Positions 36,792 through 64,000 of a DNA stretch of 64,000 nt are shown here, in pieces. Origin of the DNA: Spizellomyces punctatus DAOM BR117. Its lineage: Eukaryota. The notes beneath the pieces are model-generated. The model was given only the letters and a program-made list of their open reading frames with translations, searched no databases and was not told the DNA's origin. Made by a program: the position numbers and the translations under genes. The stretch lies in the NCBI GenBank assembly GCA_000182565.2, contig KQ257457.1; one strand, given 5' to 3'. Positions within the stretch are counted from its first letter, which is position 1, and every line of letters starts with the position of its first letter.

Positions 36792-36992
36792 GGTTAGGGT
36801 TAGGGTTACAGGGTGTCCCCACTGGGTTATTTTTCTCAAGTGTTCAGATTTGAAAGCAACCTTAATTAAAGTTGTTGAGAATGGTCTAAAATGAGGGAAT
36901 ATACAATAAAATAGCAAAGAGTTCAGTGATTTTTTAAAAACTTCAAGATTAGAGTTAGGGTTCCCTAACCTTAACCCTAACCCTAACCCTTA
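36792..36992. repeat. Interstitial telomere-like repeats, including an inverted TTAGGG/CCCTAA junction
   Basis: GGTTAGGGTTAGGGTTA at 36792; TTAGAGTTAGGG-TT-CCCTAACCTTAACCCTAACCCTAACCCTTA at 36949-36992. Confidence 0.85.
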
Positions 36993-37494
36993 GTTGCTCC
37001 TGTCGGACTGCACTATGATGGCGGGGTTGACCCATAAACTGATTGTCTTGTTACATTGGAAATTGCAACTATTCTAGTGCATTTGGTAGGATTTCGCAGA
37101 TGCGTTTGCCTATTCTCCTGGCATTTGATTTCTCAGTACGAATCTGAAGTGGTGCAGGAACGGTGCTGTGCAGCACGCTGAGATTTCTGAATATTCCCAC
37201 CCTAGTGCCCAATCCGGTTGAGCATGCTGCTTTAGTTATATCTGGCTCATCGAATGATTGGATCCTTTCATATGAATTGATAGCATAGTGATCGTGACTA
37301 TAGTAAGCAACGTCCTAATATGTGGAGGATATTTAGGTCATTGCGCATAGGGTTGTTTCAAAGATAGTCATCTTTCACCCATTCCCCCTATTTCGTGTGT
37401 TTATCCGACTTTGTTTATGTAAAGTATGTATGAGGTTCACATCTAGTCTACAATCTAAATTATGTCTAAACCGCTAGTCCACATCTAAATCTAT

Positions 37495-40400
37495 TTAGAT
37501 TGTATGCGCTACGAATGACTGTAGATGGTACAAATGCACCCATTTACGCAAGGACTCAAAGTTGCTCTTGAATCCTCCATATCCATCCAAAAAGGCTCCC
37601 ACATACTGCTCCGTTAGTTCCGCTTCGTCTACCAATTCAGCGGAGGCCGCTATAGACCATGCTGCCGTCCCTAAATCGAACCTACAATCTCCAAAACCAG
37701 CGCTGCCCCAATCCACCGCTCCCACTGCGCGCCATTTTGTTAATGATGTTTGGTCTTGAACAAAGAGCACATTGGCCAGGACGGCATCACCATGCAGGAA
37801 TACTAGTTTGGAGTTGCTGTCGTCCTTTCGGCCATATTCGTCTGGAGGATATTGCGCATAATGGATATGCTTTTGATCCCTTCTTCGCGACTTGTGTGAC
37901 CAAGATCCCGCGTAATATTGTCGTTGACAAAATCCAGGCTGGCCTTCAACCAGTCTTGAGGACTGCTACTCGCGTGAATGCCACTGTCAGCAGGAAGTCC
38001 GAGGACAGGAACTCCTGTGAGCTCCCAATTGTGGATGATGCGAAGAGCCTCACCAAACTGGTACGCAATATGAAGGCGGGCTTCCGAAGATCCAGCTCGT
38101 ATCCATCCGTCCGCCCCATTGTCGCCATCCACTCGCGAAACGATAGAGTGTCTTTCAATAATGGCGATGGGCGTTGGAATAGAAAGCGACTCGTTCGAAA
38201 TCTTGGAAAGAGCCATGAGAATGCCATGCTCTTGTTCTATTTCGGCCGCAGAAGTCTCTGAGATTGGTTGCTTAACAACTAGCCGAGCACGAGGTGCGTC
38301 GATAAGGAACATTAAGGAATTTAGCCCCGCAGTATTCCTCTGGATGTCAAATTGGGAACCAGCGTGCGCAATGACGGCCGACAGAACAGCGTCGGAAAGT
38401 TCATTTCCAAGTGATGCTGCTCCATGGATTTCGGATGAATGAGTGCTTGTTGATTTGATGATACTACTAATACGTAATGCGAACTCTTCATCCCTGGGTA
38501 TATCATGACCCCCGTTATGACGAAGATGAGTCAATTTCGTGGCCTCATAACGGCCGGCGAGAAGAGTATGGAACTCCTCACGTTCTCTTTCGCCAGAGAT
38601 ATGGATCGACGGAACTTGCCATCCACTCGTTGCTGTCTCAGTCCAGGCAGAGGGTACGTGAGGCGATGATAACGGAAGTCCAGAGAAAAGGATGCTGAAA
38701 TTCCACTTGCGAGGGATGAGCGACTTTTCAGCCATTCGATCCATCAGTTCGACCACCATTGCTCCTTGAGAAAAGCCCAGTAGCGCATGGACGCGACCGT
38801 GCTTTTCGATCTCTGTCAGAACAAGGTGTGCTGTCTGAAATGCATCATCTTCCGTGATGTTGCCGTCGGATGGAAACCAGGAGTATCCTGTCATATTTGG
38901 GTAATAAATGCGAAGTTCTGCAGAAGCAAAGAAATTATGAGAACTTCGGATTACGTTCAATTCACTATTGTAGGTCCATGAACTTACGAGACGAAAATCC
39001 TTCGAAAGGACCTTGAAGGTAGATGAGTTCGACATCTGAGCCTAATGCCACAGATATTGCAGAAAGTTGATGGGCAAGATGGGCCGGATTCGACCCTTGC
39101 CCATGGAGACAAAGAATACGTATAGATTTCGGCGGGTTGTGCAAACTGTTCATCGAGGACTTCACAACATTAGCATTGTCCACCATCCGTGTGATGGCAA
39201 GAGCCATCTGCTCTAATGATGGCGCCGTAAACATCGTTTCGTGATTGAATCGATCAAGATCAAATTTTCTCCTAATCCTTTGAAGGGCGATAAATGCGTT
39301 CATCGAGTGACCGCCGAGCGAGAAGAACGACGAGGTGGGGGAAATCTGACCGGCGTCGGATTTAAGTACTTCAGCCCAAATCGACGCTAACTGCTCTTCA
39401 ATTGTTGTCAATGGGCGGGAACCTTGATTTGATTGGATATCCAGCTTTGCAAGGGCCGATCTGTCCGTCTTACCGTTGATGTTGACAGGCATCTCGTCCA
39501 ACGCTAGAAAAATAGAGGGAACCATGTAATGCGGGAGGCATTGTTGCGCAAATTGACGAACGCTCTCAACGTCTAGGTTTCCGGGCGTTACGAAGGCAAC
39601 CAGGTATTTCTGGTCTTTTACGATCACGCATGAGCTCGTGACTTCGGGGTGTCGCAAGATGGAGCCAGCAACCTCGTCCAACTCAATCCGATAACCATTG
39701 AATTTTATCTGGTTATCCTTCCGTCCGAGAATTTCGAAATCGCCGCTTGGAAGTATACGCCCGAGATCGCCAGTCATGTACATTCGGCCCGGATTGAAAG
39801 GATTGGGAAGGAACCTGGCGGCACTTTGCTCGAGTAAATTCACATATCCGGGGGCGACACCTATTCCACCAACGTACATTTCGCCTACTACCCCCACAGG
39901 AACTCTTCCGTTCTGATCCAACAGATAGCATGAAGTATTCGGCAGCGGCCTGCCTACCGTCACCGTAGCGCCGGACTTGAGAGTTCCCATATGACTAAGA
40001 ATTGATATTTCCGTGGGGCCGGTGACATTAATGAACCGCACATGTGGCGCCCATAAATCTTTAAGGGGTTGGGGACACATTTCCCCACCTACAGTCACAT
40101 ATTTCAAATTAGGATAGTCCAGTGGTGAGCCAAGGGTGGAGAGACCAGTTGGCGTCATGAACAACGCTGAGACTTTTTTGATTGATTCGCGAGCATCCTC
40201 TTCCCGTATCACCAAAGTGGCCCCATTACATAAAGCAGACCAAGTTTCGAGCTGGCACGCATCAAACCCGATTGCCATGAATTGCAATACCCGCGCTTTC
40301 TCATGATATCCGCTTTCACGGGACCAGGCAAAAATGGCATTGGCTGCACCGCCATGTGGTACAGGTACTCCTTTCGGTTTCCCGGTGGAGCCCGATGTGT

Positions 40401-43400
40401 AGACCACCATAAACGTGTCGGCTTCCTGTACGTGTGGTGCACCCGTTTGACGGAAGGTAGATCGTGCAGTCGTTGAGTCTACTGGCTTTTGTGTGGGACA
40501 TCCGCAAAACGTCGATGCTGTTCGCTTTGCCCACTCCCAGAATGATTTGCGCGGTTTGCGAGATGTTTCAACTTTTTTGTTTCGTGGGGTATCAGTCGAC
40601 ATCGTTGGAGAACATGGATAAGCCCGTTTATCTCCTCCTGAGCGACCTTTAAACATCTCAGCGTTGCCTTTTCCTTCCTCGACGAGTGTAGTCTGACTAT
40701 GTGCATCACTCAAGCTGTGTTCGACATAAATCACTGGGATATCCAAGTTCAGGTCGTGCACTGCTTTCGCATCAGCTTTCCTCGACACAATGCAACTGGC
40801 GTTCGCATCTTCCACCATAAACCTGATGCGCTCAGGCGGAAATTTAGAGTCGATCGGCAAAATTGCCCCGCCTGCCTTCAAAGCTCCCAGCAGTGCAACA
40901 GGGAATTCCAGGCAGCGCTGCATGATGACTGCAACACCGGAACCCGCCTTGAGTGTCCCAATCAAAGCCGCGATGGCATCTCCCCGTTCATTAAGCTCCC
41001 CATATGTCATATAGTCATTCCCATATTCAACCGCACGCCACTCAGGATGCTTTCTTGCGTAGGATTCAAAAGCGTGATGTACTATGGGGAAAGGGATTTC
41101 GACATGCTCGCCGTAGGAAAACTGGTCTATTAGCTTAACCTGCTGTGGCGATAGGTCCCAGAAGGCGCTACGTGCGTTCGCTGTTGGTCCGGTTATGTTA
41201 TCCACAAGCTGCGTCATCGTGTAGTTGAATTCGTCAACAACCATTGAAGCTTGTGACCTTCCCATCCTCTCATAAAAAGCAGAAACGCGTAGCTCTTCCC
41301 CTAGCGGCGATAGAATAAGCTCGAATGAATAGTCGGAGAACGTTCCGTTGTTCCGGGGGTTCTTCGACGACAGTTTGAAACGACTATCCTTGGTGGTATC
41401 GGCCTCTCCGCTGTTGGGTATGTTTTGGAATGCGAACAGCGTGTTGAAGAGTTTGTTTTCTGCTGTTACCTTGCCCCAGCTTTGGATATCCACTAAACTA
41501 GCATGCCCAAAGGAAAGCATGGAGGCATATTCATCATGAATGCCCTTCAAGACGTCAATCACGCTTCGGTCGTCGAAGCGCACCCGACATGGCACCGTGT
41601 TGATGAGTGGTCCAACAATCCTAATTGGAGTACATACATGTAGATAATTAGCTACGATTCCAATTTCAATAAGAGAAAGTGGAATGCAGATGTAAAAACG
41701 TACTCATTCGCGCCCTGTACTGATATATCCCGTCCAGAGAGAACCTGACCAAAAATGATATCGCTTGTTCGCAAGTATTTACGAAGTGTGAACGCCCATG
41801 TACATTTGAGAATCGCCGCAACTGTGACGCCAGCCGTTCTTGCAGCCTCCTGTAGCTGAGCCATTGATAACGGACATGCAACGTCAATTGGAGCGTCCTC
41901 ATCCAATGGGCAGCCCCCTAATAAAAGCTCTGGTGCCGCCACAGTATCCACGAGGTAATCACGCCAAAAGGTTTCAGCTGCGTCCAGATCTTGTGAGTAT
42001 ATGTAATCGACGGCGGTACGGAAACTCGGTCGTTTGGTAAGTGGCAACCCATTCACCGCTTTCAAGAAGTCGTGAGTAATCAGTGGCATTGAGAAACCGT
42101 CATATAATGCGTGATGTATCGTCATTAAAACATGATACTCTTCGCGAGCACGAACTAGCGTCAGTCGCACCCATTGCTTATCCGAAACTTTGAATCCGCG
42201 CTGTTTGTCTTGCTTCAAGAAGTCCGATATATCCGTAGTAGCAGCTTCCTCGAACAAGGGTTGGGCTTCATGCAAAACAATTTGACATATGCCATCCGAG
42301 GTCGATGCAAAGGCAGTACGCAGAATGTCATGAGTGGCGACGAGAGTGTGGAAAGCTTTGCTTAGCGCCGATGGTTCAGTCACACCAGGTGCCACATCGA
42401 GAAGAACCTGGTTAACGTACGCTCCGGGATCACGCATCGTTGTCATCACCATGCCGGCCTGCCCGGGCATTGGCGGGAATGCATCGAACTCGCCATTTAG
42501 CCGCACGGAGGGTGCCCAAATGTTTGCGATTTCCTCGTACGCCCTTTGACTGATGATGCTGTGTTAAAACCCATACACACAGTAAGATCAATAAAACGTG
42601 ACAATACCTGATCTTCGCAGCAGGCCAGGTATGAGCTGCCTTCGCGACCTCTGTTTCGCTAGGGGACTCTTCAAAATATGAAGCGAGGCGGGCTAATGTA
42701 GGGGTTTTGAATATCTGCTGTGTAGTTAGGATGATCCCTTCCTTCTTACACAGGGCGACAAGGCGCATCGCTGACATGGAATCACCCCCGAGCTCGAAGA
42801 AGGAAGTGTTTCTACTAATTAGCTCGAGCGGTTTGTTCAAAACCTTAGCCCATAGGGCAGCCATCTTGATCTCCATAGGAGTGGCAAGGTACGCACGCTC
42901 CATCTTGAGCTCAATTTCAGCCAGGGCTTTCTTATCAGTTTTTCCATTCACGTTGGTTGGCATCGCGTCCAATCCGCAATACACAGCTGGTCTCATATAG
43001 GGCGGTAAATTCTCGTCCACTACCGCGCGTATCTCTGCAATAATAACATCGGATGGGGTGAAGAAGCCAGCTAAATACGTGCCATCCTTCACAATAACAG
43101 CTGCTGTAGCAACCCGCGGATGTTTAATGATAGCTGCCGCCACTTCGTCCAGCTCGATGCGATAGCCTTTCAATTTTACTTGGTCATCTTTACGTCCAAG
43201 CAACTCATATTTACCATCGGGCAAGACTCGCCCGAGATCCCCTGTCTTAAACATCAAAGGCCCGTGATGGCGTAAATCATGAGGAACGAATCGCTCCGCA
43301 GTCAGTTGCGGTAAATTAACATAACCGTGTGCGATACCCCAACCACCCGTATACAACTCGCCAACGACTCCCACCGGGACTGGCCTCATTCGTTCATCCA

Positions 43401-46400
43401 GGACATGCGAGCATGAGTTGGGGATGATTCTGCCCAGAGTAATCGGCTCTTCAGGGAATAATCTGCCAATATGCGCCAAGATTGACACCTCAGAAGGTCC
43501 TCCACCATTAATGAAGACGACATGTTCCGACCACAGGTCTTTCAATTCCTTCGAGCATGCCTCTCCAGTAACAACCATGTTCCTCAGGTTAGGGAACTCG
43601 GATGGTGAACCTAGCTGAGACAAACCAGTCGGCGTAATCATAAGTGAATCCACGTTACATAGCGTATCCATCACCTGATCGTACAAAACGAGCGTCGAGC
43701 CACTGCTGAGCGCTGACCAGGTCTCCCATGCACACGCATCAAAACCGATAGCCATAAACTGAGCCATACGAGATCGTTCATGACAACCAAGGAGAGGGGC
43801 ACAAAACAGGATAACATTCATGGCGCCAAAGTGAGGTACAATTACGCCTTTAGGGTTTCCCGTTGATCCTGAGGTGTAAACGACCAAAAATTCATCGGCA
43901 CCAGTTGGCATATGCTTCTCCATACGTTCAAAACCATGTCGATCTTTTGATCTTCTATCCACATATACGACGGCCCTATCCAGGCTAAAAGGTCTATCGC
44001 CTTGCCCTTCTTGCATGACGATAGCGCATACATCCGAGTCTTGCAAGATATAGGTGATTCGATGTTCGGGGAACTTGGCATCGATCGGAACAACAGCGGC
44101 ACCAGTCTTTAGAACGGCTAGTAGGGCAATAGGAAATTCAAGACAGCGCTGCATAATAACAGCAACACGTTTTCCAACACGTGCACCCAGAGAAGCGAGT
44201 TGACCGGCAACTGCTTCACCGCGCTCGTTGAGCTCGCCATATGACAAGCACTCGCCTGCGTGTTCAATAGCAATCCAGCTAGGGTGCTGTTTACTACGAG
44301 CTTCAAAATTCTGGTGAACTACTTCGTGTGGATCCACCTTCGGCCCCACGCAGAGTTTCTCAAGGGCAAGGGTTTGCGAAGGAGACAATTCCCACATGTC
44401 TTCAGCCTTCATCATACAGTTGTCTTGAATTGTTGCTTCTACAAGCCTGCTAACTGTGAAATCGAATTCGTCCAACAACATAAACGCTTGAGATTCCTCC
44501 ATATTCCGAGATTGATAGAAGCCGCTGATACGGAGGATCTTATCTTCTGGATGGAGAACTAACTCGAAGGGGTACTTCGACATGGACCCGCCGGAAGTGC
44601 TCGCAAAATCGGGTGTCCGCATGATCTGCTCCACTGCATGCTCGTTTTTCACAGGAAGGTTTTGAAAGACAAATAGGGTTTGGAAAAGCGAAACATCTGC
44701 TTGGACCCCAGCGTACCGTTGGATGTCCACTAGACCCGTATGCGTGTGAGGTAGCATTTTGGTATGGTCTGCTTGCAAACATTTCAGAATGTCCAAAACA
44801 CTACTCGAATCAGAGACATTGATGCGGCATGGTACTGTATTGATTAAAGGTCCAACAATCCTAGCAGCACAGATGTTAGTTCTCATGCAGCACCAGCAAT
44901 GGAACCACCTCGGAACTTACGCCTCTACACCTTCCACAGGGATATCACGTCCGGAAAGCACTTGACCAAAAATCACGTCATCTACACGCAGATACTTCCG
45001 TAGGGTAAACGCCCAGGCGGCTTTCAACAGCACAGCCATTGTGACTCCCGCAGAGCGCGCGGAGGTTTGAAGAACGTCGGTAGAAGTAGAGCATTGATGG
45101 AAAATGGGTGATGGCATTTCATCTTTAGCGGGAGCTCCACAGCGAAGGTTCAAAGGCGACGGACGAACGATGTCCGAAAGGTAGGCGCTCCAAAATTTCC
45201 GGCTTTCAGCCATATCCTGAGCAAAAACATAGTCCACGACAGTGCGGAAACGAGGCCTATCGAGGAGCCTTTCACCGACGTATGCTTTGATGAGGTCATC
45301 GCATATAATAGGCAATGACCATCCGTCATACAAACTATGGTGAATCGCCATCACCACGAATTGCCTAGGGATGGGTAGGGACGAAGATACCAACGCTAAG
45401 CGAACCCAATGAGTGTCTTGAAGAGTAAAACCACGCAGCTTATCAGACTCGAGATATGTGGTGAGTTCCGGTACACTGACGATATCCACCGTTGCCGTGG
45501 ACTCGCCATGTGTGATCTGGCACAGACCCGCGGTCGAGGTCGAGACAAAGGTGGTTCGCAATATGTCGTGCTGCTTTATGACCACCCAAAATGCCGTTTC
45601 CAGTTGGCTCACAGATATTGTACCCTCTACTTCGAAAATAATATGAGCAAGGTACGAAGAATTGTCTTGTAATGTAGCTGCAATCATTCCACTTTGCAAC
45701 GGTGTGGTAGGAAACACTTCGTACTCGTTCCGGATGTTTAGCTTTGGCAAGAAGTCCGTTGTGATTTCAGCCAAAGTCTCGCGGCTGAAGAAGCAACAAA
45801 TACACGGTGAGTTTGTGTATGTCATAAGGTAATGAATGGTATGACTCCCACCTGACACAAGCAACTGGCCAAGCTATTGGAATGTACTCCGTAGAGACGG
45901 ACTTGAGTATCGCTGCCATGTCCGCCAACAGAGGTTTTGAAAAGATCACCGTTGAAGAAAGACTGGAACACCCGTGTTTCTTGGCCTTCGCGACCAAACT
46001 GATCGCAGATAACGAGTCACCACCAAGGGCAAAGAAGGAGCTATCCCTTCCAATGAGCTGGATCTGCACTCCAAGGATCTCGGACCACAATTTTGCCAGT
46101 TGCCGTTCAGATTCGGTTTCAAGGTCATCTACTTGCATGCGCATATCAAGCTGTGCAAGTGCCTTCTTATCGGCCTGTGGGATGCCAAACAATACTTCAG
46201 AAAAACAGTCCAAATAAAAATGCTCGTATCTGCACCAACCTTTCCATTCGCATTTGTCGGCATGTTAGTCAGGCCATGAAAAACGGCAGGCATCATATAC
46301 CTGGGGATTCGGCTAGCAAGAATGTCGCGCAATTCTTGCACATCAACCGTGTCCGGTGTGAAAAATCCAACCAGATAAGAGCTATCCTTCACGATAGCAA

Positions 46401-49400
46401 CCGCTGCGCTCACTTGAGGATGTTTCATCATTGCGGCAGCAATTTCGTCTAATTCGATGCGGTATCCCTTGAACTTCACCTGATCATCTTTGCGGCCAAG
46501 TATACCAAAACTCCCATCCGAAAATATGTACCCCATATCTCCTGACTTGAACATTCGCGAATCAGGAATGAACGGGTCCGGTAGGAACCGCTCCTCGGTT
46601 AGCCTCGACAGATTGCTGTATCCAGGGGAGATACCGACACCGCCGATATAAATCTCACCCACCACCCCAATTGGAACTTGTCTGTGTTGAGCATCCAATA
46701 TATAGCAACTGGAGTTCGGAATTGGCCGGCCAATTGTGACTTCGTCGTCTGGTTTGAGCAAAGCAAGGTGCGATATGACGGAAACCTCAGATGGACCGTA
46801 TATATTGTTGAACACAACGTGTGTTGCCCATATGTCCTTCAGCTCTCTTGGACAGTGCTCGCCACAAACCGTAACCGCTTTTAAACAGGGGTAATCTTCG
46901 GGCTTTCCAATCTTCGAGAGTCCGGTGGGGGTAATAAAGAGTGTAGTAACGGAAGAAATAGTTTTGAATGCATCTTCTTCACGCAGGACAAGAGTTGCGC
47001 CATGATTCAAAGCGGACCATGTTTCCAATTGGCATCCGTCAAAACCAACCGCTAAGAACTGAGCAATTCGAGAACCTTCCACACATCCGGGATGGTTACG
47101 GTAGTGGTTTATTACGTTTGAAACACCAATATTAGGAACGGGAACACCTTTTGGTGCGCCAGTTGATCCAGATGTATACAAGAAGAAAAAGGTGTCTGAT
47201 CCAGTAGCGCAGTGTCGATCTGCTGGCGTGAAGTGCCGGGGAGAGGATTGAAGTTGCTTCATGTCGACCCATAAGAGTTCAATATCATGGAGTGACAGTG
47301 CTTCTATCTTCCCTGTGCATTGGGTCGAAAGGATTAACGTAGCTTGTGAATCACGCAGAATATACTGAATGCGGTCCGCCGGAAACTGGGCGTCCAACGG
47401 GACGAACGCCGCGCCAGTTTTCGCTACTGCCACCATCGACAATGTGAACTCGAGGCTTCTGGACAATACAATGGCCACACGATGATCCTTAGTCACTCCC
47501 TTCGACGCTAGCTGCGCGGCCAGCGTGGTGCTGAGACTATCTAGCTCGGCATAAGTCAAGAATTGATCTCCATACTCCACGGCCCGGGTTTCTGAGCACT
47601 CCTGCATGATCTTTCGGAAACCATCAATCACAACGTCATATGGTAAAGAGACTGTCCCTCCGAAGTTAAACTGTGAGATCAATGAGGATTGATGCTCAGA
47701 TAAATCCCATAGCGAATCATCCTTGATGCTAACATTCGCAGACGCTACGAGCTGGGAAATTGTGAAGTCAAATTCATGCAGAAGGCATCCGATTTGGTTG
47801 TTGGCGACAATCTCAACGCTACTTCCTGAAATAGTTATGAAAAATCGCTCGCTATCCCCAAATTCGCGGGAAATCACGACTGTAAAAACAGAGGACTGTG
47901 CGTCCGATGGATTCGTGTCGGAATAGGTTCTAGTAGTGGGCTCGGGTGTATCGACGTAAACCAGTGTCGTGTCGCCGCAAGCCTGCCCCGTACGTTCTTT
48001 ATTCGCACTGTGATAACAATGTCGAATAGCTGATAAATCAAGATTTGCAGTTTTTCGCCGAATGCGATCAATATTTTCATCGACGAATCTCAAGAAATCA
48101 GCAATGGTCTGTTCCGAATCAGGAAAGCGCACCCGACATGGGATAGCAAACGAAGCGCCATTGTTTCCCCTAAACAAATTTGGTGAATGAGAATCATAGC
48201 TATGGGAACCGCAGTTTCCATTTAGACTTACGAAAATACAAGATCGGGATCGCCGAAAATGATATCGTCAGCGCAAAGATATTTGCGCAATGTCGCGGCC
48301 CAAGCTGCTTTGAATAAAGTAGGCAAGTGTACTCCGATCTGCCCGGCGAATGAACGCAACTTGTTGGCACTGGTCTGCAACGGGATAGTGAACGACTGGG
48401 GTTCATTGTTATATGCGGACAGGTATTTGGCGTTGTGCGGCCGAAGCTCAGCTTGCCCGAAGGGAGGTCGCGAAGATAGTCTTCCAACAAAGCGGTATCT
48501 GAAGGCTTTACTTCGGCAGTAGATACAGTAGGCAGAATAAACGGAGTTGCAGCTCTTATGGAATTCTCTAGCAGTGTCTGGAGCTGATCTTGCATACTCT
48601 GGATAGTGGCCTCATGGAAGAGATTCTTATCGTAGTTGAAGAACCCCATTAGTGCTCCGTCGGGGCTCTTCGTATACTCAATTAACATCTCGAATGGGGC
48701 AAGACCTTCGGGCCGCTCATCTGGTTGATGTCTCGACAGAAGATGAGAGTTTTGCTCAACCAACATAAACGTGAAGAACGGATGTCGTCCGGGTAATCGA
48801 GAAGGCATCTCCGTGGTAACGACTTCTTCGAAAGGAAGAAGCTGGTTGTCGAATGCCTCCAAAATGGTACCCCTAACAGCTGCAACCACTTCCGAAAATG
48901 TATCCAATCCGGTGAGATCTGTGCGTAAAACCAGCTGTGGCAATTATGCAGTTAGCAAGAATTTCCCTTGAATGTAAGCACAAGGAGATTCATACCGTAT
49001 TCACGAAGAATCCAACAATGCCTTCCAACTCTTTCACTCCCCGGTTTGCACTCACAGTACCGATACAGATGTCCAAGCTTCCAGTGTAAGAGGCAAGAAT
49101 TATTTTTAGAGCACTTATCATAACCATGAAAACGGATGCGTTTCGAGAAGTAGCATATTCCTCAAGTTGGGAGGCCAGTTTTGCCGGAATGGAAAAGGCG
49201 GCGCTGCCACGTAAGATTTTATGGACTGAACCAGAATGCACTTTGTCATATGGGAACTGCAAGACCACAGTGTTCGCAAGCTTCTCTTTCCAGTACGCCG
49301 ACTGTTTTTGAAATATAGTATTGGGAATAGTCTTTTCCCAAGCGACATAATCCGCGTATTGATAAGGTACCGACAAGTCCCTCCTCTCGCAAAGAGCGGT

Positions 49401-52400: not shown

Positions 52401-53427
52401 TTGTTCCTCACGTGGTCGGATGTTTCCACGGTTGAGACTGAGCCAATACAGATGTCCTCGCTCCGCATCCATCGGCTCATAAGCACATTCAATGCACTGA
52501 GAATCACAACAAAGGGGGATGTCTGTTTCGTTGAGGCATAGTAGACAATGGCGTTCGATAGCTCCAAGGAAAAACTGAATTGATGATATCTCATCGACGG
52601 GATATGTGCCTCTCCGTTGTGCGCTTTATCAGTTGGAAAAGGGCAGGAAGGCGCCTTTTTCAACTGCTCCGCCCAATACGCCGTCTGCACTACCGAGGAG
52701 ATGAGAGACTCGCATGTAAGCTGCTCAACATTGGGGAGCATCATCTTGGTCAGCGTAGCGCGTAATTGCTGGGCACAAGACTCTGCCGTGTCCGGGAAGG
52801 TACAAGGATCGACCGAGATACGGCCGGTGAACGCGGCGGATGCTGAATCCAAGATCTCGAGGCGGATGTCGGAGTCCGATGGGAGATGTGATGACAAGCT
52901 GCAACGTGCGAGTCATGAGAACAAGCTAGGTCAACAAGCAGCCATTAAAACGAACCTTGCATCGCGGAGAAGAACGGTAAGAGAATGGGGAGTCTCAGAA
53001 ATAAGTGCAGCCGTCTTTTTTGCGATTTGCTTGATCGTCCATCCGACCGTAGCTTGCATGTTGAGTGGTTCGCACTGGACTACCTGTGGCTTTGTGTCGA
53101 TCGAATCGGTAGCAAAGCGCTTGATAAGGGTGATGGAGAGAGGTCTCTCGTGCTGGCGGTTCAAAACAATGACCAATGCCGCCAACGCATAGATGAGAAG
53201 ATTGTTGATTTCATTCGTACAGTCCTTCTTGACGCGAAGTTCGCTCAGGATATCGGAGGTAAGCGTGAAGTCGGCTTGTAAGGGTGCAATCGGGTGCGAT
53301 CTTTTTCGCATAAAGGAGTTATGGGTCATTAGTAAATGCAATAGGTCAAAGCGCATTAATCGTCATACCCAGCGTCCGAAGCTGCGTCGATCTCGACGTC
53401 GAGTGCTTCAAAGCCTTTGGGCGCCAT
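37495..53427 (-). CDS. Multimodular NRPS: halfC-A1-T1-C-halfC-A2-T2-C-A3-T3-C-A4-T4-FSH1 hydrolase-APH-like phosphotransferase; ~13 introns; apparent frameshifts (possible pseudogene or assembly errors)
   Basis: Four A3 motifs (FTSGTTGTPK, YTSGSTGAPK, YTSGSTGNPK, YTSGSTGKPK); four T motifs (GGNSL, GGDSL, GGDSM, GGHSM); three HHxxxDG (HHIVFDG, HHSLYDG, HHALYDG); ILCLHGQG..GFSQG..GGHDIP; HGDAVLAN..DWG; most exon junctions restore the frame with GT-AG introns. Confidence 0.9.
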
Positions 53428-53599
53428 AATGGCAGATGAGGTGCTGTAGGGAAGGACTTGGCTCGTTGAATGACGGACAGTGTGCCAGGACTTCAAGTTA
53501 AATCGAACGGACTGTCACCATCACGGCCGCCCAAGCGCAGTTTTTTTTTTTTGTCCTTGGTTTTTTGATTTCCTTTCTTTGTGTGCTTTATCGTTGTAG

Positions 53600-53975
53600 G
53601 TTAGAAGAGTATAGCAGTAGGGCAAATTTGCCCCGGCGACCTACCGGACAGTCATAAGCATCTTTCGATTCAAATTTCGCTTTCTCTCCTGGCTTCAACC
53701 GTATAATGGGCAATGCATCATAAAGAACCCTTGGATAACTCTCTACAATTGAATTCTCTTCAATATCCCATCGAGCCCCCTCCAAGAAAATTCCATTGAT
53801 GTAAGCGCCTTCTTCCGGCCGTACCCCAGCACTGCGGGTAGGCCGTACTTGAAACTCAAACGTCAACAAGTCGATGGGAATGGTGTACTTCCGGGCATAG
53901 TTTTGCAAGCATCCCGTAAGAAAACTTTGGGTGAAAAAGAATGCACTGAGCCAAAAGACTGTCTTCTGCCAGCAA
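53600..53975 (-). pseudogene. Isolated fragment of a dynein heavy chain C-terminal domain (axonemal type)
   Basis: VFWLSAFFFTQSFLTGCLQNYARKYTIPIDLLTFEF..GAYINGIFLEGARWD..YDCP; no other dynein exons on either side. Confidence 0.85.
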
Positions 53976-54469
53976 AAAAGACCAAAAAGCCCATCGAAGT
54001 ACATCGGCTGAAGATGGAGTGTCGGAGTTGCCGCGTGGACTTGCATGACTGTGCCACACCGAAAAGCTCGCCTTATTTAATTAGCTGTCCGTCCCCAGCA
54101 AATTAAGTGGCTTAGTCCCGCGATCTGCCAGCTTTGATCGTTTTGCACCCCATGTGAGCAATCACTTTTGATAAGTTGGGGCTGCTCAGGCACCGCGCAG
54201 CCCATTCCCCGGTCAGCAAAACCTCCGGAAAAGTGCCGTTTTTTTGGATGTTGGCGGAATCTTTGCCATATCGCATTTGCTCCATGAGAATGTCGACCTT
54301 CTTCTACCCAAATTTACCAAATTGCCTGTTTGAATGTATTCGTGGCTGCAACAGAAGCTATTGGAATGGGCTAAAAATGTCGACCTGTTGCTCGTCTCTC
54401 TGCTTGTGGTTCCTCTTCTTTGGGATCCCCTCAGTGCCAGCAGAAGGGTGACCCATCCTTGTTTCTGCA

Positions 54470-57400
54470 ATGGGCGAGACAAACGAAAGCAACTCGGCGT
54501 CTGCTCCAATGCTTCGCAAGGAACTTCGTCGCCCATTCTTGTCCAATGTCTTTCTCTCCTGGATCGACCCGTTCGTGAGACTGGGATATAAGAAGGCGCT
54601 TGATGAACAGGTTTGCCTTGATTATACTTGCTAACGATATAATACCGCTATTTCTTACCGCAGTCTTCATCGTAGGATCTTGGCTCACTTCCGAAAAGCC
54701 AGCAGGGTTTGTGCAATTGATCTTTGTTACGTTCATGTCGCTCGGTGGATCTGTTCGAATTGATTTTGTCTGTGATGCTAGCCGTCTCAGTCGCTAACGA
54801 CCTCAGTAGTTTCTGGGAGCAGTACAAACGTTATACGGACCCTTTCGAAAATACTTTATGCACGCCACCAAGCCTCACGAAGTCGCTCGCTCTTCTCTAC
54901 GCACCAAGATTGTAAGCCGTACAGCAACACCTTGCACACCCTGTACCTGTAGTAATCTATTCATGCTCATCACAGGGTATTGATTGCCCTCCTCCGTGCG
55001 ATTGCTCTTGTCATCACTCTCGGGCTTCCTTTTGTCATGATTCCGCAAGTGTTGCAATATGTGAATCCTCAACCTGATGGCCCCAAGCTTTTCGTCGAAT
55101 CTGGTGTTGCGATTGCATTCATTTTGTGCGCCCTCCAACTCGTCTTATCCCTGTGCTCAAATGGGGTACAAATGCTCGGGCTCGACCTTACTGTGGAAGC
55201 GACCGCAGTTTTGACTGATGCATTGTATGAGAAAACTCTTCGCCTCTCTCATAAAGCCCGCCTACAGTTCCCTGCTGGTCATATCATCACTCTCATCAAT
55301 GCCGATGTCACCAAAGTTGCTACGTACTCGAACTTCATTAATCCAATGTGGACTGCTCCGGTGCATATAATTGTGTGCTGCGTTTTGCTTGGGAAACTAT
55401 TGGGTCAAGTGGTCTGGGTATCCATCGGCCTGTTTGCTATCTTCATTGGTCTGCAAACACCATTAGGCGCAGGCTTTGGGAAGGCCGTGGGGGGCTACAT
55501 GAAATCCATGGATGCGCGTATCAAGCTCCTTCGCGAGTTCCTGTACGGTGGGTGTGTCTCCTGGTAGATGCCCGCTTTTGGTTGGTGTTTCTAAGCTTCT
55601 GCATATGTGCTTTACAGGCGTCAAAGTAATCAAATACGCCGCTTGCGAAGACTACTTCTTTAAAAAGATTTCGGCAGCGCGCAAGATTCAGAATAAATCC
55701 TTCCGGTTGTTCTGTACGGTGATTTTCTGGCTAAGCAGCGTCAAGCAACTGCAGCAGGTCCTTGTGCCCGTCATCACGTTCGTCGTTTTCGCGGCAGTCG
55801 GAGGCGATATGTCTGGTTCCGCTCCTTTCTCCGTGCTTGGTCTATTTTCCACCCTTGCCACTCCTTTCTCCGACATTACCGATGTAGTGGCGTGAGTATG
55901 CGATCAATTCCTTAACATATATGATTTGATGATTTGACCCTGGATATTTGTTGGACAGAAATCTGAGTCAGTTCCTGGTGTCCATGCGACGCATTCAGTC
56001 ATTGCTGCTTGCGGAGGAAGTCGAGCCATCACATCTCACGGGCCGCCTGGAGAAGGTTAAGAATATAGATGACGCAATTACGCTGCAAAATGCCTGTTTT
56101 TGCTGGGAATCGTCAAAGAACAGTGAGTCCGAAGCAGATGCAAAACCCCCATCGACTTTCCAACTACGAGATATGTCTATCAACATCCCGCGAGCCAGTT
56201 TAACCGCCATTGTAGGCGCTGTTGGAGCAGGAAAATCTTCTTTCTTTTCCGCTCTCGTGGGAGATATGCGTAGAACTGATGGCGAAGCCAATGCATATGG
56301 AACCATGGCCTATTGTCCCCAAGAACCTTGGATTATAACCGGTACCATCAAGGAGAATATCCTCTTCAATTCGAATGTGACGGACGAACGGCTTTCGAAT
56401 GCTTTCTCTGTGTGCCAGTTGAATCGTGATCTGCAATTGCTGTCACATGGTGTCGATACACAGATTGGGGAGAAAGGTGTTAATCTGTCTGGGGGTCAGA
56501 AAGCTCGAGTTGCGCTTGGTATGTGATCTCACGTTGGAAGACAGACGGATTTTTATGTCCTGGACTGAAAGTCTCATCGTTGATTTGCAGCACGTGCCGT
56601 ATATCGAGATGCAGATATATACCTCTTGGACGATCCAATCGCGGCCTTGGATGCACATGTCAGCAAAGAAGTGTTCGAGAAAACCATTTGCGGAGCTCTG
56701 CGAGGAAAAACTGTTTTGCTAGCGACGCATCAGCTACATCTTTTGCCAGAAGTGGACCACATCATTGTTCTTGAGCATGGAAGGATAGTTCAAGCGGGCA
56801 CGTTCCCGAATTTGATGAGCGACAAAAATGGATTGCTCGCTCAGATGATGAAAGATTTCCATGTCGCTGAGGTGACTGCCTATGAAGACGCAGAAGAAAA
56901 CGATGATGTAATCGAGACAAAAGATGAGCTAAATACGGCTCCAGCTACAACCCCATCTTCAAAGGCCCAAGGAATTGTTGCGGAGGAGCGTAAGAAGGTA
57001 AGAGACGTTGCCTTACTGTGATTTTACCGAATGAGTCCGACAATGTCGCATCCGCCTTGTAGGGACAAGTAACGGGTGCCACAATTGTATCCTACTTTAA
57101 AGCCGGAGGAGGGATCCCTTTCGCCTTTAATGTCATTTGCTCTACCATTCTCCTCATCGTTGCAAGCAGTGCCGTGCTTCTATCTCTTTCGTGGTGGTCA
57201 ACCAATCGCTTTGGTTGGACTTCCTGGCAGTATATTGGATTTTACGCAGGGGTGGGCGTATTTTCCTCGGCCATGAGCAGTAAGTAGTTATGTTTGCAGA
57301 GTGCACTATACCATGGTCTCTCTTACCGACACAACCACTTTCCAATCGTTGCAAAGTGTGTATGAGTGGAGCCATCGCTTATGGGGGTTATAAAGCGGGA

Positions 57401-59114
57401 CGTGCATTCCACCGATTGGCTATGAATGGTCTTTTACAGGCCCCTATGAGTTTTTTTGAAAGTCAGCCTGTCGGCAGGATTATAAGTCGCTTGACCACTG
57501 ATGTTAAAGACGTGGTAAGTTCTGAATTTCTACTAAAAGTGGGCGCGACTAAATGCTTTTGCATTGGGCATGCAGGATCTTAATTTTCCAAATACATTTA
57601 TCGACCTCTTTGCAACTGGCACAAATGTCATTTCCACCCTCATCGTTATTGTATATGCCAATCTCCTCTTACTCGGTGAGTGAAAGCAACCAAAAAAAGT
57701 TGCAGGATCTAATTGTCTCTCCCAAATAGTTTTACTTGCGGTGCTAGCATTCTTGTACTTCCTTCTCTTCCGCTACTATCAATCAAGTTTCCGCGAACTA
57801 AAGCGCCTGCAATCTATCATGAGGTCACCGCTCAGTGCACATGTATCAGAAACGCTGAACGGACTCTCGACGATCATGGCGTATAAAGTACATGACAAAT
57901 TCATTGCCAATCAACGTTCGAGGACGGATCAGAGTAATCTATCCACTCTTTTCTATAACGCGACTCGACTATGGTTTTTGTTAAGGCTTGAAATACTGTC
58001 AACGTCGGTTGTCTTGGTTTTGGTTTTGGTTGCTCCCTTGAAGATTACGGACTCTAGTACCATGGCTGTGTCTCTTACATCGGCCATCTCGCTTGGTTCC
58101 GTGCTCATCCAGTTCTTTATCAATCTCGGGCGAGGCGAAGCGATGGTAGGTGAACTGAGTACGCAAGTAAAGGAAAAAGGGGCGGTCATATTGACGCTTT
58201 CCCTGTTTGTCTTCCCCCAGTTCAACGCTATCGAACGTCTCAACTACTACGCTAACGAATTACCCCGGGAGGCTCCTTCTGAGTTAGATAGTGATCCCAA
58301 AGGTTCCACTTGGCCATCCGCGGGAGCTATCGCTTTCAAATCCCTCCAACTAGGTTATGAATCACGCCCCGATCATCTTGTCATCAAGCACCTTGATCTC
58401 AGCATCAGACCCGGGGAGAAGATTGGCATTATTGGACGCACGGGATCAGGGAAATCCACTTTGGTGACTGCGTTGTTTAGGATCATAGAAGCGTCGGATG
58501 GCCTCATCGAAATAGATGGCCGGGATATTGCTAGTGTAGGTTTGAGGACGCTGAGGAAGGGGTTGCAAATGATCCCGCAGGAACCGACGTTATTCTCCGG
58601 GACTTTTCGTAGTAACCTTGACCTGGAATCTCGTTATACGGATGAGCAGATGTGGCAAGCTCTAGACCTGATAGGTCTGAAAACCTACATCTCCTCTCTG
58701 CCGGAGAAACTGGATGCACCCCTTACAGAAGGCGGCAGTAACCTTTCTGTGGGACAACGTCAATTGCTTTGTCTCGCCAAGGCGATCCTGGCAAATGCAA
58801 AGGTGTTGGTGATGGATGAAGCAACTGCTGCAGTTGATGCGGATGCGGATAAGAGGATCCAGCAATCGATCGCAACCACTTTTAAGGACACGACTGTGAT
58901 CAGTATAGCGCACCGTCTCAATACAATTGCTGGCTTTGATCGGGTGCTGGTGTTGGATGAGGGGAAAGCGGTCGAGTGCGATGCTCCCTGGACATTATTG
59001 GAAAGGAAGGGGTCAGTGTTTGCGGAGCTGGTCGAGGCTACAGGATCTGCGAATGCCACAGCGGTGAGAGAAATTTCACATGCTGCATTCCAACAATTGG
59101 GGTCAAAAAGATAG
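54470..59114 (+). CDS. ABCC/MRP (Yor1-like) full-size ABC exporter, TMD-NBD-TMD-NBD, multi-exon
   Basis: NBD1 GAVGAGKSS, LSGGQ, LLDDP; NBD2 GRTGSGKST, LSVGQRQ, VMDEATA; FFESQPVGRI; first exon MGETNES..LSWIDPFVRLGYKK. Confidence 0.95.
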
Positions 59115-60356: not shown

Positions 60357-63300
60357 TCAGCCGAACACATCCGTCGCATATCTGACCCCTTTCAATTCTT
60401 CAAACCACTTCTGCGCCTCTTCCTCGCCAACCCCTTTCATCTCCCTATAGATCCTGATAAAGGTCTCCCTTACGCTCTTGGCTAACTTGCTCGCACTACC
60501 ACATACGTAGAACCTCGCACCGTCAATAAACATCTCCTTTAGCTCCTCACGGTCAGCATACATGGCTTCGTAGACGTATTTATGCTGTGTAGGACGATCG
60601 GGGTATGAAGAAGGTGATGCTGGTGGTGTGGGAACACCGCTTCCACGTGAGAAACAGGGGCGGACTTGCACGGCGCCTAGTGCTGTCCACCGTTGAAGTT
60701 CGTCTCTGTATATGAAATCCTCCTCTGCATTACGGCAGCCAAAATAGAGTAAAGCTTTTCCTACCTCTCGACCACAGGCGACCATGGCCGCACGTTCCTG
60801 AATGAAACCCCTCATTGGGCTGATCCCACTCCCCGTCGCGACCATGATAATAGGGACGGTGGGGTCTAGGGGCAAGTGAAATTCTGCGGCGGAAGGACGC
60901 ACGAAGCAGGCAACCATCTCTCCCGGACTGGTACGAGAGAGATAGGTAGAGGCCACCCCGAGCTTTGTTTCGTGCCCCGAAATCGCGGGTGATTTCAGAA
61001 CGTCAATTGTTAAGGTCACATGAGAAGGGTTCCAGAGTGGCGAAGAGGAGATTGAGTATTGGCGCATTCGCATGGGTGGTAACATGGAGAGGAACTGGCC
61101 GAATTCCAATGGATGAGCAGGGTACAGTTCCAGTAGATCCAAAACCGACACGCGTTTGTTAAGGATCTCGGTATTGTAGTCTGCATCGTTGAAGCGACTA
61201 AAGGCAGATTGAAGCTCCGCAGGTGCAAGGAGACGAAGAGTGTCCAACTGGCGGCGGGTTGCCGGCTGATTTAGCTCGACGTAGCCGCCTAAAACGGTAT
61301 GAACCGGAATAGGCAGATTGGTGGGCTTGGAAATGAACTACTCTCAGATGACAAGAGAGAAAAGAAAAAAGACGACTTGGGCCCGTACCAAAAAAGTCCT
61401 CTTTTCGGTCTTTATCATGATGTTGGCATCAACTGGGAGTTTAAAGCGATACAAAACTCGTTTAACGTCGTGGATCGGATTAACAGGCATTACCCCCAAG
61501 TAGTCGCCTAGCCACCAGCGCTATTAGCTAGGTCTAAATCGTTTATTAATGACGACAACAAACTCACCAGCACGATAAGTCATACCCTCGGGGAGTTTGA
61601 TTTCTAAATGCCTTTTGGGCATCCCGCCGCATTTCAAGACGTTCGAGGTCAACTCTCGATTGTCAACTACAGCACCGTATTCAAATTTCTGGTGACTCAA
61701 GACCGTAGCTCTGTTGCTGCTCAACACTTGCACTTGGAACGTGGACGTTACGTTGGCCGCACTGCCCGCGTCAACATCATCGGCTGTAGAAGTTCCCTGA
61801 GTAGACTTAGAACCCGCCCCGAACTTGTCTTGCATCATACACCAAAATTTGTTTTCCCATTCATCGAATTCGCCAAAAAAATCTCCAGCAGCGTCAGCAC
61901 AGCCTCGATATAGTAGTCTCTCGGCCCCTACCAATGACGGGATGCATCTTAATAGTGGTATTCGAAAGTCTAATTTTCTTTATACGTCTCTTCGGCGTTC
62001 ATTTCGCCCGGCACTCACCTTTTTCATGTAACGTCTCGTCGATCAATATGGGGATTCGTTGGTATGTTTGAGCCCAACCTGTGTGTCCACATCCAAAAAC
62101 CGCGTACTTAACCCCCTTTAGCGTATCTGAGACTGACGGACCAGTGAGCCAAGCCACAAACTGGCGGGCATTATCAGGGGGTTGGCCTTCGTAAGATGAG
62201 CAGATGATTGCCACTGGATTTGTAGATAGGAGAGCCTCAGTTGCAGAGTCCAGTGTGGCCGTAGTGGCGGAAAAGCCATAGTTTGAAGCGTCAGAGGCCA
62301 GCCGATCGGCAAAAGATTCACAAGAACCTGAACATAGAGTTATGGTAGAGTACAGTAGAATAGGTAATAATTTCTAGCGCAGGTGCGTACCAGCATTAGA
62401 TCCAAATAAAATGGTTAACTTCCGTTCTCCGCCTTTATCCTGAGATCCTGTGATGGTTTCCTTCAACAAGACCTCCGCCTCTTTAGCCGCCTTGTGCCCG
62501 ACGATATCAACCGATAAAGCCCTTGGCGCCCGTACATTCTTCCTCACTCTCGCCTTCATGTAAAAATCGTTAGGTTTGATTGTCAACGTCTGCCTGATCC
62601 TCAAATCGTAAGCTGGGTCGGCCTTTTCCATATCAAACTTCTGCAAAATCATGGCGACGGTCAGCAAGCTCTCCTGCCAAGCGAACGAACGTCCGATGCA
62701 GGCCCTAAGACCACTGCCAAAAGGCTTCCACGAATTAGGCGGGAGTGCTTCGAACTTTCCCTCGAGCATGCGTTCAGGCCGGAATTCCTCAGCATCTTCT
62801 CCCCACACTTTGGAATCTCTATGGAGTTTTCCTATAATAACGCTAATAACATCATGTGCGCCTACTTCGTACTCGCCGTTCTTGAAGATGTAATTTGTCC
62901 GGCCTTCTGTCGCTTTGACCTTGCGTGTGAAGAAAGGCGCGGTTGGTTGCAAGCGCAGGGTTTCTTTCAGCACTGCGTCGATGTACGGGAGTTTGAAAAT
63001 ATGGTCAAGCGTAACGGGCTCGCCGCCCGTTACCTGGTCCACTTCAGATTGCGCCTTTTGTAGCGCGTAGGGATTGCTAAGTAGGTAATAAAATGCGAAC
63101 GAGAGCAAACCGGACGTAGTTTCGTGCCCTGTGGCAACGAAGAGCGTGTAGCTTCATTCGTTATACTCTGCAAGGTACAGTCGAGGACATACCGGCAACT
63201 AAAAATGTAACCATCTGAAAACGAATGTTTTCTTTGGACAACTGTTGGCCTGTTGCCTTGTCCCGACCTGAACCATTGATTGGTGACGAATACGTAACTG

Positions 63301-64000
63301 CATTCGTATCTAGTTAACCAGACATCTTTCTAGCAAGTATATTTACCGTTCAGCATCATGTTTAGCAAATCCTTAGCATCGGTGGGTTGCTCTCGTCTTG
63401 TCTTTACAATCTGATCGCAAAGTTCGTGAATATACGCGATATCTTGGTGAAACTTACGCGTGGTACGAAACATAAGGCTTTGCTGGATAGGGACACGCTG
63501 CGAACGATGGCCGGCTTCGAGGAGAACGTTTACCATGGCTTCAACAAAGGGGTGCTGCGGAAAAAGTAACACTCGATGGGACTAGCTATTGACGCATCAC
63601 GGAAGCGTACAGAGACCCACCATTTCTTCGGTATAAAAAGAGTTGAACCGATAATCGAACGAACATAGAGCTAAGGTGTCGAGCGTCAATCTATATGGAA
63701 GAGTAAGTCCCAGCGTTATCATTGACCAAAGCCTAACCCACTTCCGCAACGTGCCTGGTGAAATCGTGAGCAGCATTGATCCTATAATCCTCTCCGAATC
63801 TTTCCCACTTTAAAATCAGCTGGGAGGCAATGTCGTGCATGTTTGGAAAAAGCGATCTAAGCTTAGCCGGGCTGAAAGCTGGCATCAAAATCTGGTGCGC
63901 GAGCGCCCAATTCTGTATTATGGCAGTCAAATGAGCACCAGTCAGTTCACTTCTTTCCCTTGGACAAAGCCTTGTCTGCCACTTACAGGCTCATCGTTAT
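60357..64000 (-). CDS. Self-sufficient cytochrome P450-NADPH reductase fusion (CYP505/CYP102 BM3-like); 5' end lies outside the window
   Basis: AGHETTSG, KETLR, PFGSGLRACIG (heme Cys); flavodoxin FGSNAG, SSYEGQPPDNA; RQYSISSS, GSGISPMRG, YFGCR, RYATDVF. Confidence 0.95.

Follow-up and report, generated by a model that had tools for sequence, protein, structure and literature searches.

The question raised by this locus is whether a chytrid fungus, belonging to a group that is usually described as poor in secondary metabolism (PMC7466969, PMC2823734), carries a gene cluster for a peptide product, and which of the neighbouring genes belong to it. The locus lies at the right end of a 64,000-nucleotide stretch of Spizellomyces punctatus DAOM BR117 (contig KQ257457.1, assembly GCA_000182565.2), called the window here as a whole, and holds a nonribosomal peptide synthetase (NRPS) gene, a gene for an ABC transporter of the ABCC subfamily and a gene for a cytochrome P450 (P450) fused to its reductase. 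An earlier note, made from the sequence alone, had proposed these three as an undescribed biosynthetic gene cluster. Our answer, to which we give a probability of about 0.55, is narrower. The NRPS would be a resident, expressed gene whose enzyme makes a linear tetrapeptide, which would be released by an FSH1 hydrolase domain, would have been phosphorylated by a fused kinase in an ancestor, and would be exported by the ABCC transporter, with the P450 fusion as a bystander.

The source of the window is the published genome of S. punctatus DAOM BR117, because the three public proteins (P0361 for the NRPS, P0121 for the transporter and P0241 for the P450 fusion) all align exon by exon with it; the host is thus a chytrid, as the guess of an early-diverging fungus had implied. 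P0361 is 99% identical to the window over 17 exons (54004..37806), and the open reading frame (ORF) that holds the FSH1 and APH kinase domains is 99% identical to the C-terminus of this 5027-aa protein. The ABC exon 57684-59111(+) matches SPPG_05362 at 94% identity, the shortfall being intron sequence at the ends of the stop-to-stop query, and the reductase exon 60360-61337(-) matches P0241 without a difference (100%). A literature search of main texts found no paper on the locus, and to that extent the cluster can be called undescribed, but the genes are already in the public annotation, and every function given to them is inferred.

The synthetase and the parts on which the argument turns are as follows.

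37806..54004, minus strand: NRPS gene as publicly annotated (P0361, 5027 aa, 17 exons), from the exon map and Pfam matches on ORFs

51950..53299 (approximate), minus strand: degenerate N-terminal condensation-like domain, from Pfam and alignment with C2-C4

38466..39130 (approximate; split by the intron 38916-38988), minus strand: FSH1 serine-hydrolase domain, the presumed chain-release domain, from Pfam

37498..37965, minus strand: C-lobe of the APH kinase, in a different frame from the annotated NRPS end (Pfam APH, E 1.6e-9, profile positions 160-230)

Minus-strand ORFs from 37498 to about 53362 matched the Pfam families Condensation, AMP-binding, AMP-binding_C and PP-binding in an ordered series of four condensation-adenylation-carrier (C-A-T) units, followed by FSH1 and APH. 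The public protein reads (dynein exon copy)-degenerate C-A1-T1-C2-A2-T2-C3-A3-T3-C4-A4-T4-FSH1-APH(N-lobe). All four A domains carry the A3, A8 and A10 motifs (TSG[TS]TGxPK, GRxDxQ[VI]K and NGKxD; AMP-binding E 1e-39 to 5e-64), all four Pfam PP-binding matches have the carrier serine (GGNS 1151, GGDS 2401, GGDS 3437 and GGHS 4548), and HHxxxDG is found in three C domains (HHIVFDG 1346, HHSLYDG 2606 and HHALYDG 3642). By its adenylation, carrier and inter-module condensation domains the enzyme can be classed, at the level of motifs, as a modular (type I) NRPS, and the predicted four-module synthetase is in place, with four complete modules and intact core motifs. These four A-T(-C) modules, which follow a dead N-terminal C remnant, would assemble a linear tetrapeptide. 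A motif search of P0361 gave no epimerization (E) domain and no dual E/C motif.

The leading C-like domain has MQATV-G aligned at the HHxxxDG position of C2-C4, matches only positions 194-455 of the Condensation profile in Pfam, and is 33% identical to C2 over 235 aa of their C-terminal halves; the motif search gave no HHxxxDG in residues 1-1345 of P0361. This domain appears to be a catalytically dead remnant and cannot be counted as a starter C domain. Because it is without HHxxxDG and was the only candidate for that role, N-acylation of the product is unsupported, and the earlier suggestion of an acylated peptide loses its basis.

Three smaller observations concern the same gene. In A4, at about 40425-40734(-) (about 4075-4178 of P0361), there is an insertion of about 90-100 residues, which A1-A3 and most homologues do not have; alignments of other A domains to the A4 query are confined to positions 1-125 and 212-534. 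At 41903, in exon 15, one base is missing in one low-depth contig of the DNA run X2 (depth 2.9), which is probably an error of that contig. Stachelhaus codes read from motif anchors were discarded, being off by at least one position without a reference alignment.

The NRPS gene appears to be an old resident and not a recent arrival, because its intron sizes, GC content and GC content at third codon positions (GC3) resemble those of host genes. Its introns are 57-83 nt long except the first (133 nt), which is bounded by the dynein-exon copy, and the ABC introns are 54-80 nt long. The GC content of the NRPS is 0.486 vs 0.49 in the left flank, and GC3 is 0.49 and 0.51 in two long NRPS exons, 0.52 in the last ABC exon and 0.55 in the last P450 exon.

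The second step of the proposed route is release of the chain. After T4, Pfam finds no thioesterase (TE), reductase (R) or terminal C domain in P0361, and an FSH1 hydrolase occupies that place. The domain (PF03959) is matched on two exons with E values of 8e-16 and 1.4e-5, and it shares one uninterrupted ORF with APH (PF01636). Among 25 aligned homologues, the serine of GFSQG (Ser4706) is kept in 23, H4790 in 25 and H4794 in 24; D4716, a possible aspartate of the triad, the GFSQG serine and the HxxGHxIP histidines are retained in 23-25 of the 25. A profile of the family matched yeast Fsh1 (1ycd) with an E value of 4.5e-16 over chain residues 7-239 of 243, and the search of solved structures with the single FSH1-APH ORF sequence gave spurious repeat-protein matches only. 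These alignments place the tail domain in the FSH1 family over the whole fold, with the GxSxG nucleophile and the catalytic histidine.

The carrier-FSH1 (T-FSH1) ending, as far as domain scans tell, recurs and is not unique to S. punctatus. A search of 1.84 billion representatives with the FSH1-APH ORF gave 90 matches, of which 16 were chosen for a domain scan. FSH1 was found in 14 of these 16, and 13 of the 14 combine it with carrier or NRPS domains, the longest protein having 4728 aa; further matches of up to 6600 aa align at their C-termini. When 23 such representatives were compared with 77 labelled sequences, the best score always went to S. punctatus, another chytrid or Aphanomyces, and for P0394 and P0399 the second-best labelled sequence was bacterial. 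A Batrachochytrium dendrobatidis NRPS ending in A-T-FSH1 is described by Bushley & Turgeon (2010, PMC2823734), and free-standing FSH1 hydrolases, compared with LovG in the account of PMC10512364, sit in polyketide synthase (PKS) clusters of Fusarium. By analogy with the free-standing FSH1-type hydrolases of fungal PKS clusters, the FSH1 domain would free the peptide from the last carrier. In the ESM Atlas, the best score was 0.80, below the level that counts. One sub-threshold match there (score 0.79), outside the window, was an Actinomycetota cluster of 533-aa proteins with an alpha/beta hydrolase and APH, which is a possible lead only on the origin of the hydrolase-kinase pair.

The third step concerns the kinase. 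The APH N-lobe (profile positions 2-119) is in the NRPS frame and the C-lobe (160-230) in another, and the public NRPS model stops at 37803-37805, past the N-lobe. The C-lobe ORF 37498-37965(-) keeps both FLHGDAVLANVLF (the HGDxxxxN catalytic loop) and VDWGSAGFGD (metal-binding) intact. The frame changes at about 37842-37870, at a short A-run (GAAAGG). A 190-aa fragment of a relative (P0364) reads '...GVKSMSIMRDIFNQMGENNSKLVFLHGD...' straight across the two frames, with 63% identity to frame -3 down to 37845 and 76% to frame -2 from 37842. A 50-nt GT-AG intron joining the frames was ruled out: since P0364 is colinear across both, there is no intron room between them, and the cDNA contig is unspliced there. 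This contig (record 1 of run X1), which spans 37400-38917, shows neither a gap nor a differing letter against the window, the RNA run X17 lists no indel in the frameshift bin at a depth of 11.4, and the DNA run X18 has a depth of about 1-2 per strand in the same bin. Because the frames are split without intron room and the cDNA carries the same sequence, the kinase of DAOM BR117 is truncated after the N-lobe by a 1-nt frameshift. The break looks recent, because the C-lobe is still 76% identical to P0364 and keeps its catalytic motifs.

The fused APH-type small-molecule kinase would have phosphorylated the product in the ancestor, and DAOM BR117, with the frameshifted kinase, would make an unphosphorylated one; that its product is unphosphorylated is probable because the frameshift ends the protein after the kinase N-lobe. 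Thus, of the earlier suggestion of a phosphorylated peptide, the APH domain fused to the synthetase holds and an active kinase in this strain does not. APH was found in none of the 14 FSH1 proteins scanned, and the NRPS-APH fusion was seen only in P0361 and the fragment P0364. Against NCBIfam, P0364 matched capreo_Cph (E 0.0077) and APH(3') (E 3e-9), both far below the curated cut-offs.

The fourth step is export, and it involves the region between the NRPS and the transporter gene.

54470..59111, plus strand: short ABCC transporter (SPPG_05362 / P0121, 1299 aa, 12 exons), from the exon map, Pfam and structure matches

51407..55408, no strand: ChIP-seq peak over the 5' parts of both genes (run X18, target unspecified), from depth, with a dip at 53408-54074

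53643..53959, minus strand: copy of one dynein heavy-chain exon, from Pfam (Dynein_C, E 6.5e-40) and read matches

The transporter has the layout TMD-NBD-TMD-NBD (transmembrane and nucleotide-binding domains) without a TMD0, as given by two ABC_membrane and two ABC_tran matches in Pfam, and it is colinear with ABCC4 (query 23-1289 vs chain 18-1289 of 1325; 1267 residues). All 60 solved matches listed for it are of subfamily C (ABCC1-5, 8, 9, YCF1, plant ABCC and CFTR), the best being ABCC2/1/3, YCF1 and ABCC4. These matches assign it to the ABCC (MRP) subfamily by sequence and fold. The transporter had been called divergent in the earlier note, which does not hold: its E values to ABCC1-4 are about 1e-200, and its identity is 46-56% to dozens of chytrid ABCCs and reaches 80% with a Gaertneriomyces protein, the closest among the matches listed.

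The core synthase gene physically adjoins the transporter gene, as in fungal biosynthetic gene clusters. The proposed head-to-head arrangement across about 1 kb stands as far as divergent adjacency goes, but the gap is not empty and holds a Dynein_C fragment. The annotated start codons are 466 bp apart, a distance that grows to about 1.1 kb should the dynein exon be non-coding.

Reads were aligned to a 20-kb stretch, outside which the P450 gene falls. Run X1 was labelled 'DNA?' and turned out to be cDNA on alignment. Its GT-AG joints coincide with annotated introns at 8 of 8 places in the covered stretch of the ABC gene and at least 7 of 16 in the NRPS gene (none of the first three). Both genes are thus transcribed and spliced in this one cDNA run, and the view that the synthetase and the transporter are real genes is confirmed. 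The X18 depth per strand is 34-59 at 51407-53407, 9-13 at 53408-54074 and 19-34 at 54075-55408, over a background of 0.5-2.2 at 37400-50739, which makes the peak 20-50x background. This peak at the 5' ends of both genes resembles a promoter-associated mark, the target of the ChIP being unspecified. The NRPS and the ABCC are probably a two-gene synthetase-exporter pair, in which the divergently transcribed short ABCC would export the product; on its position only, it is the likeliest exporter.

Relatives of the synthetase were sought with its last module among proteins of 501-1596 aa. Of the 120 matches listed, the best were from Polyrhizophydium stewartii (48-51%), Globomyces, B. dendrobatidis and the oomycetes Aphanomyces astaci, A. 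stellatus and A. euteiches (45-58%), ahead of bacteria at 28-41%. A FastTree phylogeny was built with 137 A domains from the 120 matches and P0361 (137 of 233 domain rows were kept, a piece being used only where it spanned the C-terminal 250 positions of the query). One clade of 25 leaves (support 1.0) unites A2-A4 with 4 domains of Polyrhizophydium, 1 of B. dendrobatidis, 2 of Globomyces, 11 of Aphanomyces and 4 unlabelled ones, and contains none of the 57 bacteria-labelled domains; A1 is placed among unlabelled and bacterial domains (support 0.8). From this tree, A2-A4 likely belong to a eukaryotic NRPS lineage common to chytrids and Aphanomyces, and this lineage seems typically to end in T-FSH1. 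Gaulin et al. (2008, PMC2248709) describe A. euteiches NRPS transcripts that have no relation to the Phytophthora ones, and our literature search found no paper joining Aphanomyces, NRPS and Batrachochytrium.

A more far-reaching history can be drawn from the same data, and we regard it as speculative and rather unlikely. In that history the gene was transferred between chytrids and the oomycete Aphanomyces, an FSH1 domain in cis replaced the thioesterase, the Spizellomyces branch gained the kinase so that release and phosphorylation took place on-line, a dedicated ABCC came under a bidirectional promoter, and the frameshift is a recent loss in a single strain. Because the tree has a midpoint root and its sampling is biased to matches of module 4, it makes the chytrid-Aphanomyces lineage likely and gives no direction for any transfer. 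If the grouping is true with full sampling, it would be one more gene set common to two unrelated zoosporic groups, and both chytrids and the group of Aphanomyces include animal pathogens.

Several points weigh against our preferred reading of a resident, expressed synthetase with its own exporter. First, fungal NRPSs need not be colinear, and the tetrapeptide is what we infer from the four modules. Second, the case for co-regulation consists of a single cDNA run, in which contig depth says little about expression level, and a single ChIP run with an unspecified target. In X17, of which about 6% was read and which has an apparent 3' bias, the depth is 0-2 over the NRPS body and the 5' part of ABC and reaches 11.4 only at the NRPS 3' end. 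Third, none of the 120 listed ABCC matches lies on a contig equal in length to that of a listed NRPS homologue from Polyrhizophydium, Globomyces or B. dendrobatidis, which counts weakly against a conserved NRPS-ABCC pairing. Fourth, the start of the NRPS protein is uncertain, because an X1 contig (record 5, 52446-53731) identical to the window retains three of the annotated introns at the 5' end, a form that would meet a stop codon. Finally, decay could lie behind all three oddities of the gene: its dead leading C domain, its broken kinase and the dynein exon inserted at its 5' end.

The 5' end deserves a closer account. Between the NRPS and ABC genes, a 162-codon ORF matches Dynein_C (E 6.5e-40), and position 54004 within this ORF is where the public NRPS model begins, with the dynein copy as its exon 1. 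RNA reads and contigs match the copy only within 53643-53959 and diverge into unlike sequence past both borders, where their continuations keep the dynein reading frame (by eye); within the copy they differ at 3 to 7 letters, for example at position 53659 in 10 of 12 X17 reads. Because the reads stop matching at both borders and carry differing letters, 53643-53959 duplicates, almost letter for letter, a single exon of a dynein heavy-chain gene elsewhere in the genome, and most RNA reads at this place stem from that gene. Internal ATGs just upstream of 53299 would yield an NRPS protein without the dynein piece.

It is unlikely, in our view, that the NRPS is a decaying relic, that is, an old acquisition without a product that lies beside the ABCC gene by chance. 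The degenerate first C domain, an APH frameshift that is present in the cDNA too, the foreign dynein exon at a 5' end whose cDNA contig retains three introns, and the very low X17 depth over the gene body would all fit such a relic. However, some 15 kb of coding sequence is otherwise free of stops and frameshifts compared with the public model, the four A domains, the serines of the four T domains and the catalytic motifs of three C domains are intact, at least seven introns are correctly spliced in the cDNA, and the state of the kinase C-lobe points to a recent break. A gene that is resident and expressed, with one recent loss at its end, remains the reading we prefer.

The remaining question is the third gene of the proposed cluster.

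60360..63885, minus strand: self-sufficient P450-reductase fusion of CYP505/CYP102 type (P0241, 992 aa), from Pfam and the exon map

36789..36990, no strand: telomere-like inverted repeats, (TTAGGG)2-3 ... (CCCTAA)3-4, about 500 bp past the NRPS 3' end

The fusion itself is real. Its Pfam domains are p450, flavodoxin, FAD_binding_1 and NAD_binding_1, it carries the heme motif FGSGLRACIG and the I-helix motif AGHETT, and its best solved relatives are full-length P450-CPR (cytochrome P450 reductase) fusions (9wuc, E 5e-219) and the heme domain of P450 BM3 (E about 3e-94). The domain fusion and the heme Cys motif make it a predicted CYP505/CYP102-type enzyme. The heme domain is 84% identical to that of S. 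'palustris', 63% to Rhizophlyctis rosea and 53% to Powellomyces hirtus, and 44-50% identical to eight Dikarya fusions and 45-48% to four bacterial fusions sampled. Under the CYP family rule, membership calls for more than 40% identity to named members. The Dikarya comparators are labelled 'bifunctional P450:NADPH-P450 reductase / fatty acid hydroxylase', and no compared protein bears a CYP number; the P450 looks like a widely kept fatty-acid-hydroxylase type. For the reductase exon, the closest among the matches listed are again from S. 'palustris' (89%), R. rosea (63%) and P. hirtus (56%). The orthologues reach about 103 residues further at the N-terminus than P0241, which is annotated as a short 'variant' and begins near the end of the window (63885-64000); a longer form may start beyond base 64000.

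A cluster of all three genes acting on one product, for example a hydroxy-fatty-acyl or oxidised peptide, is quite improbable. The genes do lie within 26 kb, the telomere-like block at 36.8-37.0 kb marks one border, and P450-CPR fusions can be cluster members in Dikarya (FUM6 in the fumonisin cluster). However, the sole C-like candidate for attaching an acyl starter is the domain without HHxxxDG, and because lipoinitiation falls away, no biochemical link between the NRPS and the P450 remains. The P450 gene is convergent to the ABC gene, with 1.25 kb and no recognised domain between them, and its heme domain is equally near to bacterial and Dikarya fusions. No S. 'palustris' protein is among the listed ABC matches, the closest of which is from Gaertneriomyces; because their closest listed relatives are from different species, there is a weak hint that ABC and P450 were not inherited as one unit. 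Most likely the P450 fusion is an uninvolved neighbour, a gene of ordinary type that is conserved in chytrids, with orthologues of 53-84% identity in S. 'palustris', R. rosea and P. hirtus. Of the three-gene cluster, the adjacent and probably paired synthase and transporter are thus kept and the P450 is dropped, its CYP505-like fusion being right and its place in the cluster unsupported.

That the frameshift and the dynein exon are assembly artefacts, with a true gene that has an intact kinase and a plain 5' end, is highly improbable: the frame changes at a short A-run, a typical site of sequencing errors, where the independent DNA run X18 is thin, but the X1 cDNA contig carries the same letters there, X17 lists no indel in that bin, and X1 and X2 contigs (records 5 and 12, to 53731) are identical to the window where they cross the borders of the dynein copy, beside the paralogue reads.

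The telomere-like repeats had been said to separate the block from housekeeping genes. The repeats are real, and the left 36 kb of the window holds ordinary genes (eIF2-gamma, NST1, Ist1, NUDIX, RasGEF, RsfS and seipin), but the repeats are tiny. With at most one mismatch, TTAGGGTTAGGG has 7 matches in the window vs a mean of 0.17 in 100 shuffles, none of which reaches 7. Six of the seven lie at 36794-36992 as inverted 17-nt arms, perfectly complementary, with GGTTAGGGTTAGGGTTA and its complement at a spacing of 163 nt, and a further TTAGAGTTAGGGTT stands head to head against a CCCTAA run. The block may be what is left of an old chromosome end, or a small element bounded by telomere-like sequence; it is far above chance and too short to decide. 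Among the three rows given by Tandem Repeats Finder for the window, none was telomeric. The seventh 12-mer, TTGGGGTTAGGG, lies at 59340-59351, between the ABC and P450 genes. The 14 small ORFs in the gaps at 36.2-37.3 kb and 59.0-60.4 kb gave no Pfam family at E <= 0.01. In the left flank, 24001-26000 has a strong purine skew (AT skew 0.27, GC skew 0.14) with short GA-rich tandem repeats; it lies downstream of the NST1 domain match at 23417-24124 and is probably a charged low-complexity coding stretch.

Our literature search found no chytrid NRPS with an assigned product. S. punctatus is culturable and genetic transformation tools exist for it, and a transcribed four-module synthetase beside an exporter in a culturable chytrid is a directly testable entry point. 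The T-FSH1 ending, if true, would add a release mechanism to the NRPS repertoire, and the fused kinase is without counterpart among the 14 FSH1 proteins scanned.

The locus can be set beside several known systems. The transporter shares with ABCC4/MRP4-type short exporters the four-domain layout without TMD0, colinear over 1267 residues, and it is one of many chytrid ABCC paralogues. P0241 has the P450-flavodoxin-FAD-NAD layout and the heme Cys motif of the fatty-acid hydroxylases CYP505A1 (P450foxy) and CYP102A1 (P450 BM3). The viomycin and capreomycin phosphotransferases are APH-family kinases encoded in peptide-antibiotic clusters, and they have the Pfam APH fold with HGDxxxxN and D..GD motifs, as in the S. 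punctatus kinase. However, those kinases are separate resistance genes, whereas the S. punctatus APH is fused, eukaryotic and frameshifted, and the likeness holds only at the level of Pfam APH. Bacterial-like NRPSs of Mortierella were reportedly described by Wurlitzer and colleagues in 2021. Like the S. punctatus NRPS they are from early-diverging fungi and have bacterial C-A-T synthetases as their nearest relatives outside the fungi, and Mortierella/Modicella proteins are among the matches listed (32-39% identity), but in the tree the four Mortierellomycota A domains are not part of the chytrid-Aphanomyces clade, FSH1 is in none of the four, and P0099 lists TE/alpha-beta-hydrolase Pfam families.

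For the release step, the nearest analogues are FUS5 and FmFpy3, FSH1 alpha/beta serine hydrolases which, in the account that compares them with LovG (PMC10512364), are encoded with a carrier-dependent megasynthase without a TE, as here. FUS5, FmFpy3 and LovG are free-standing proteins beside a PKS, whereas the S. punctatus FSH1 is fused in cis behind the last NRPS carrier. LovG itself is said to act as a thioesterase, as found by Xu and colleagues in 2013. A related synthetase is known in B. dendrobatidis, in which BDEG_03514 (T-C-T-A-T-FSH1, as given in PMC2823734) ends in A-T-FSH1 like the S. punctatus NRPS. The B. dendrobatidis homologue P0009 is 44% identical to the last module of S. punctatus, and its A domain is sister to A2. 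Compared with the roughly 1000 aa of the B. dendrobatidis protein, the S. punctatus NRPS has 5027 aa and four full modules, to which a fused APH and a degenerate leading C domain are added.

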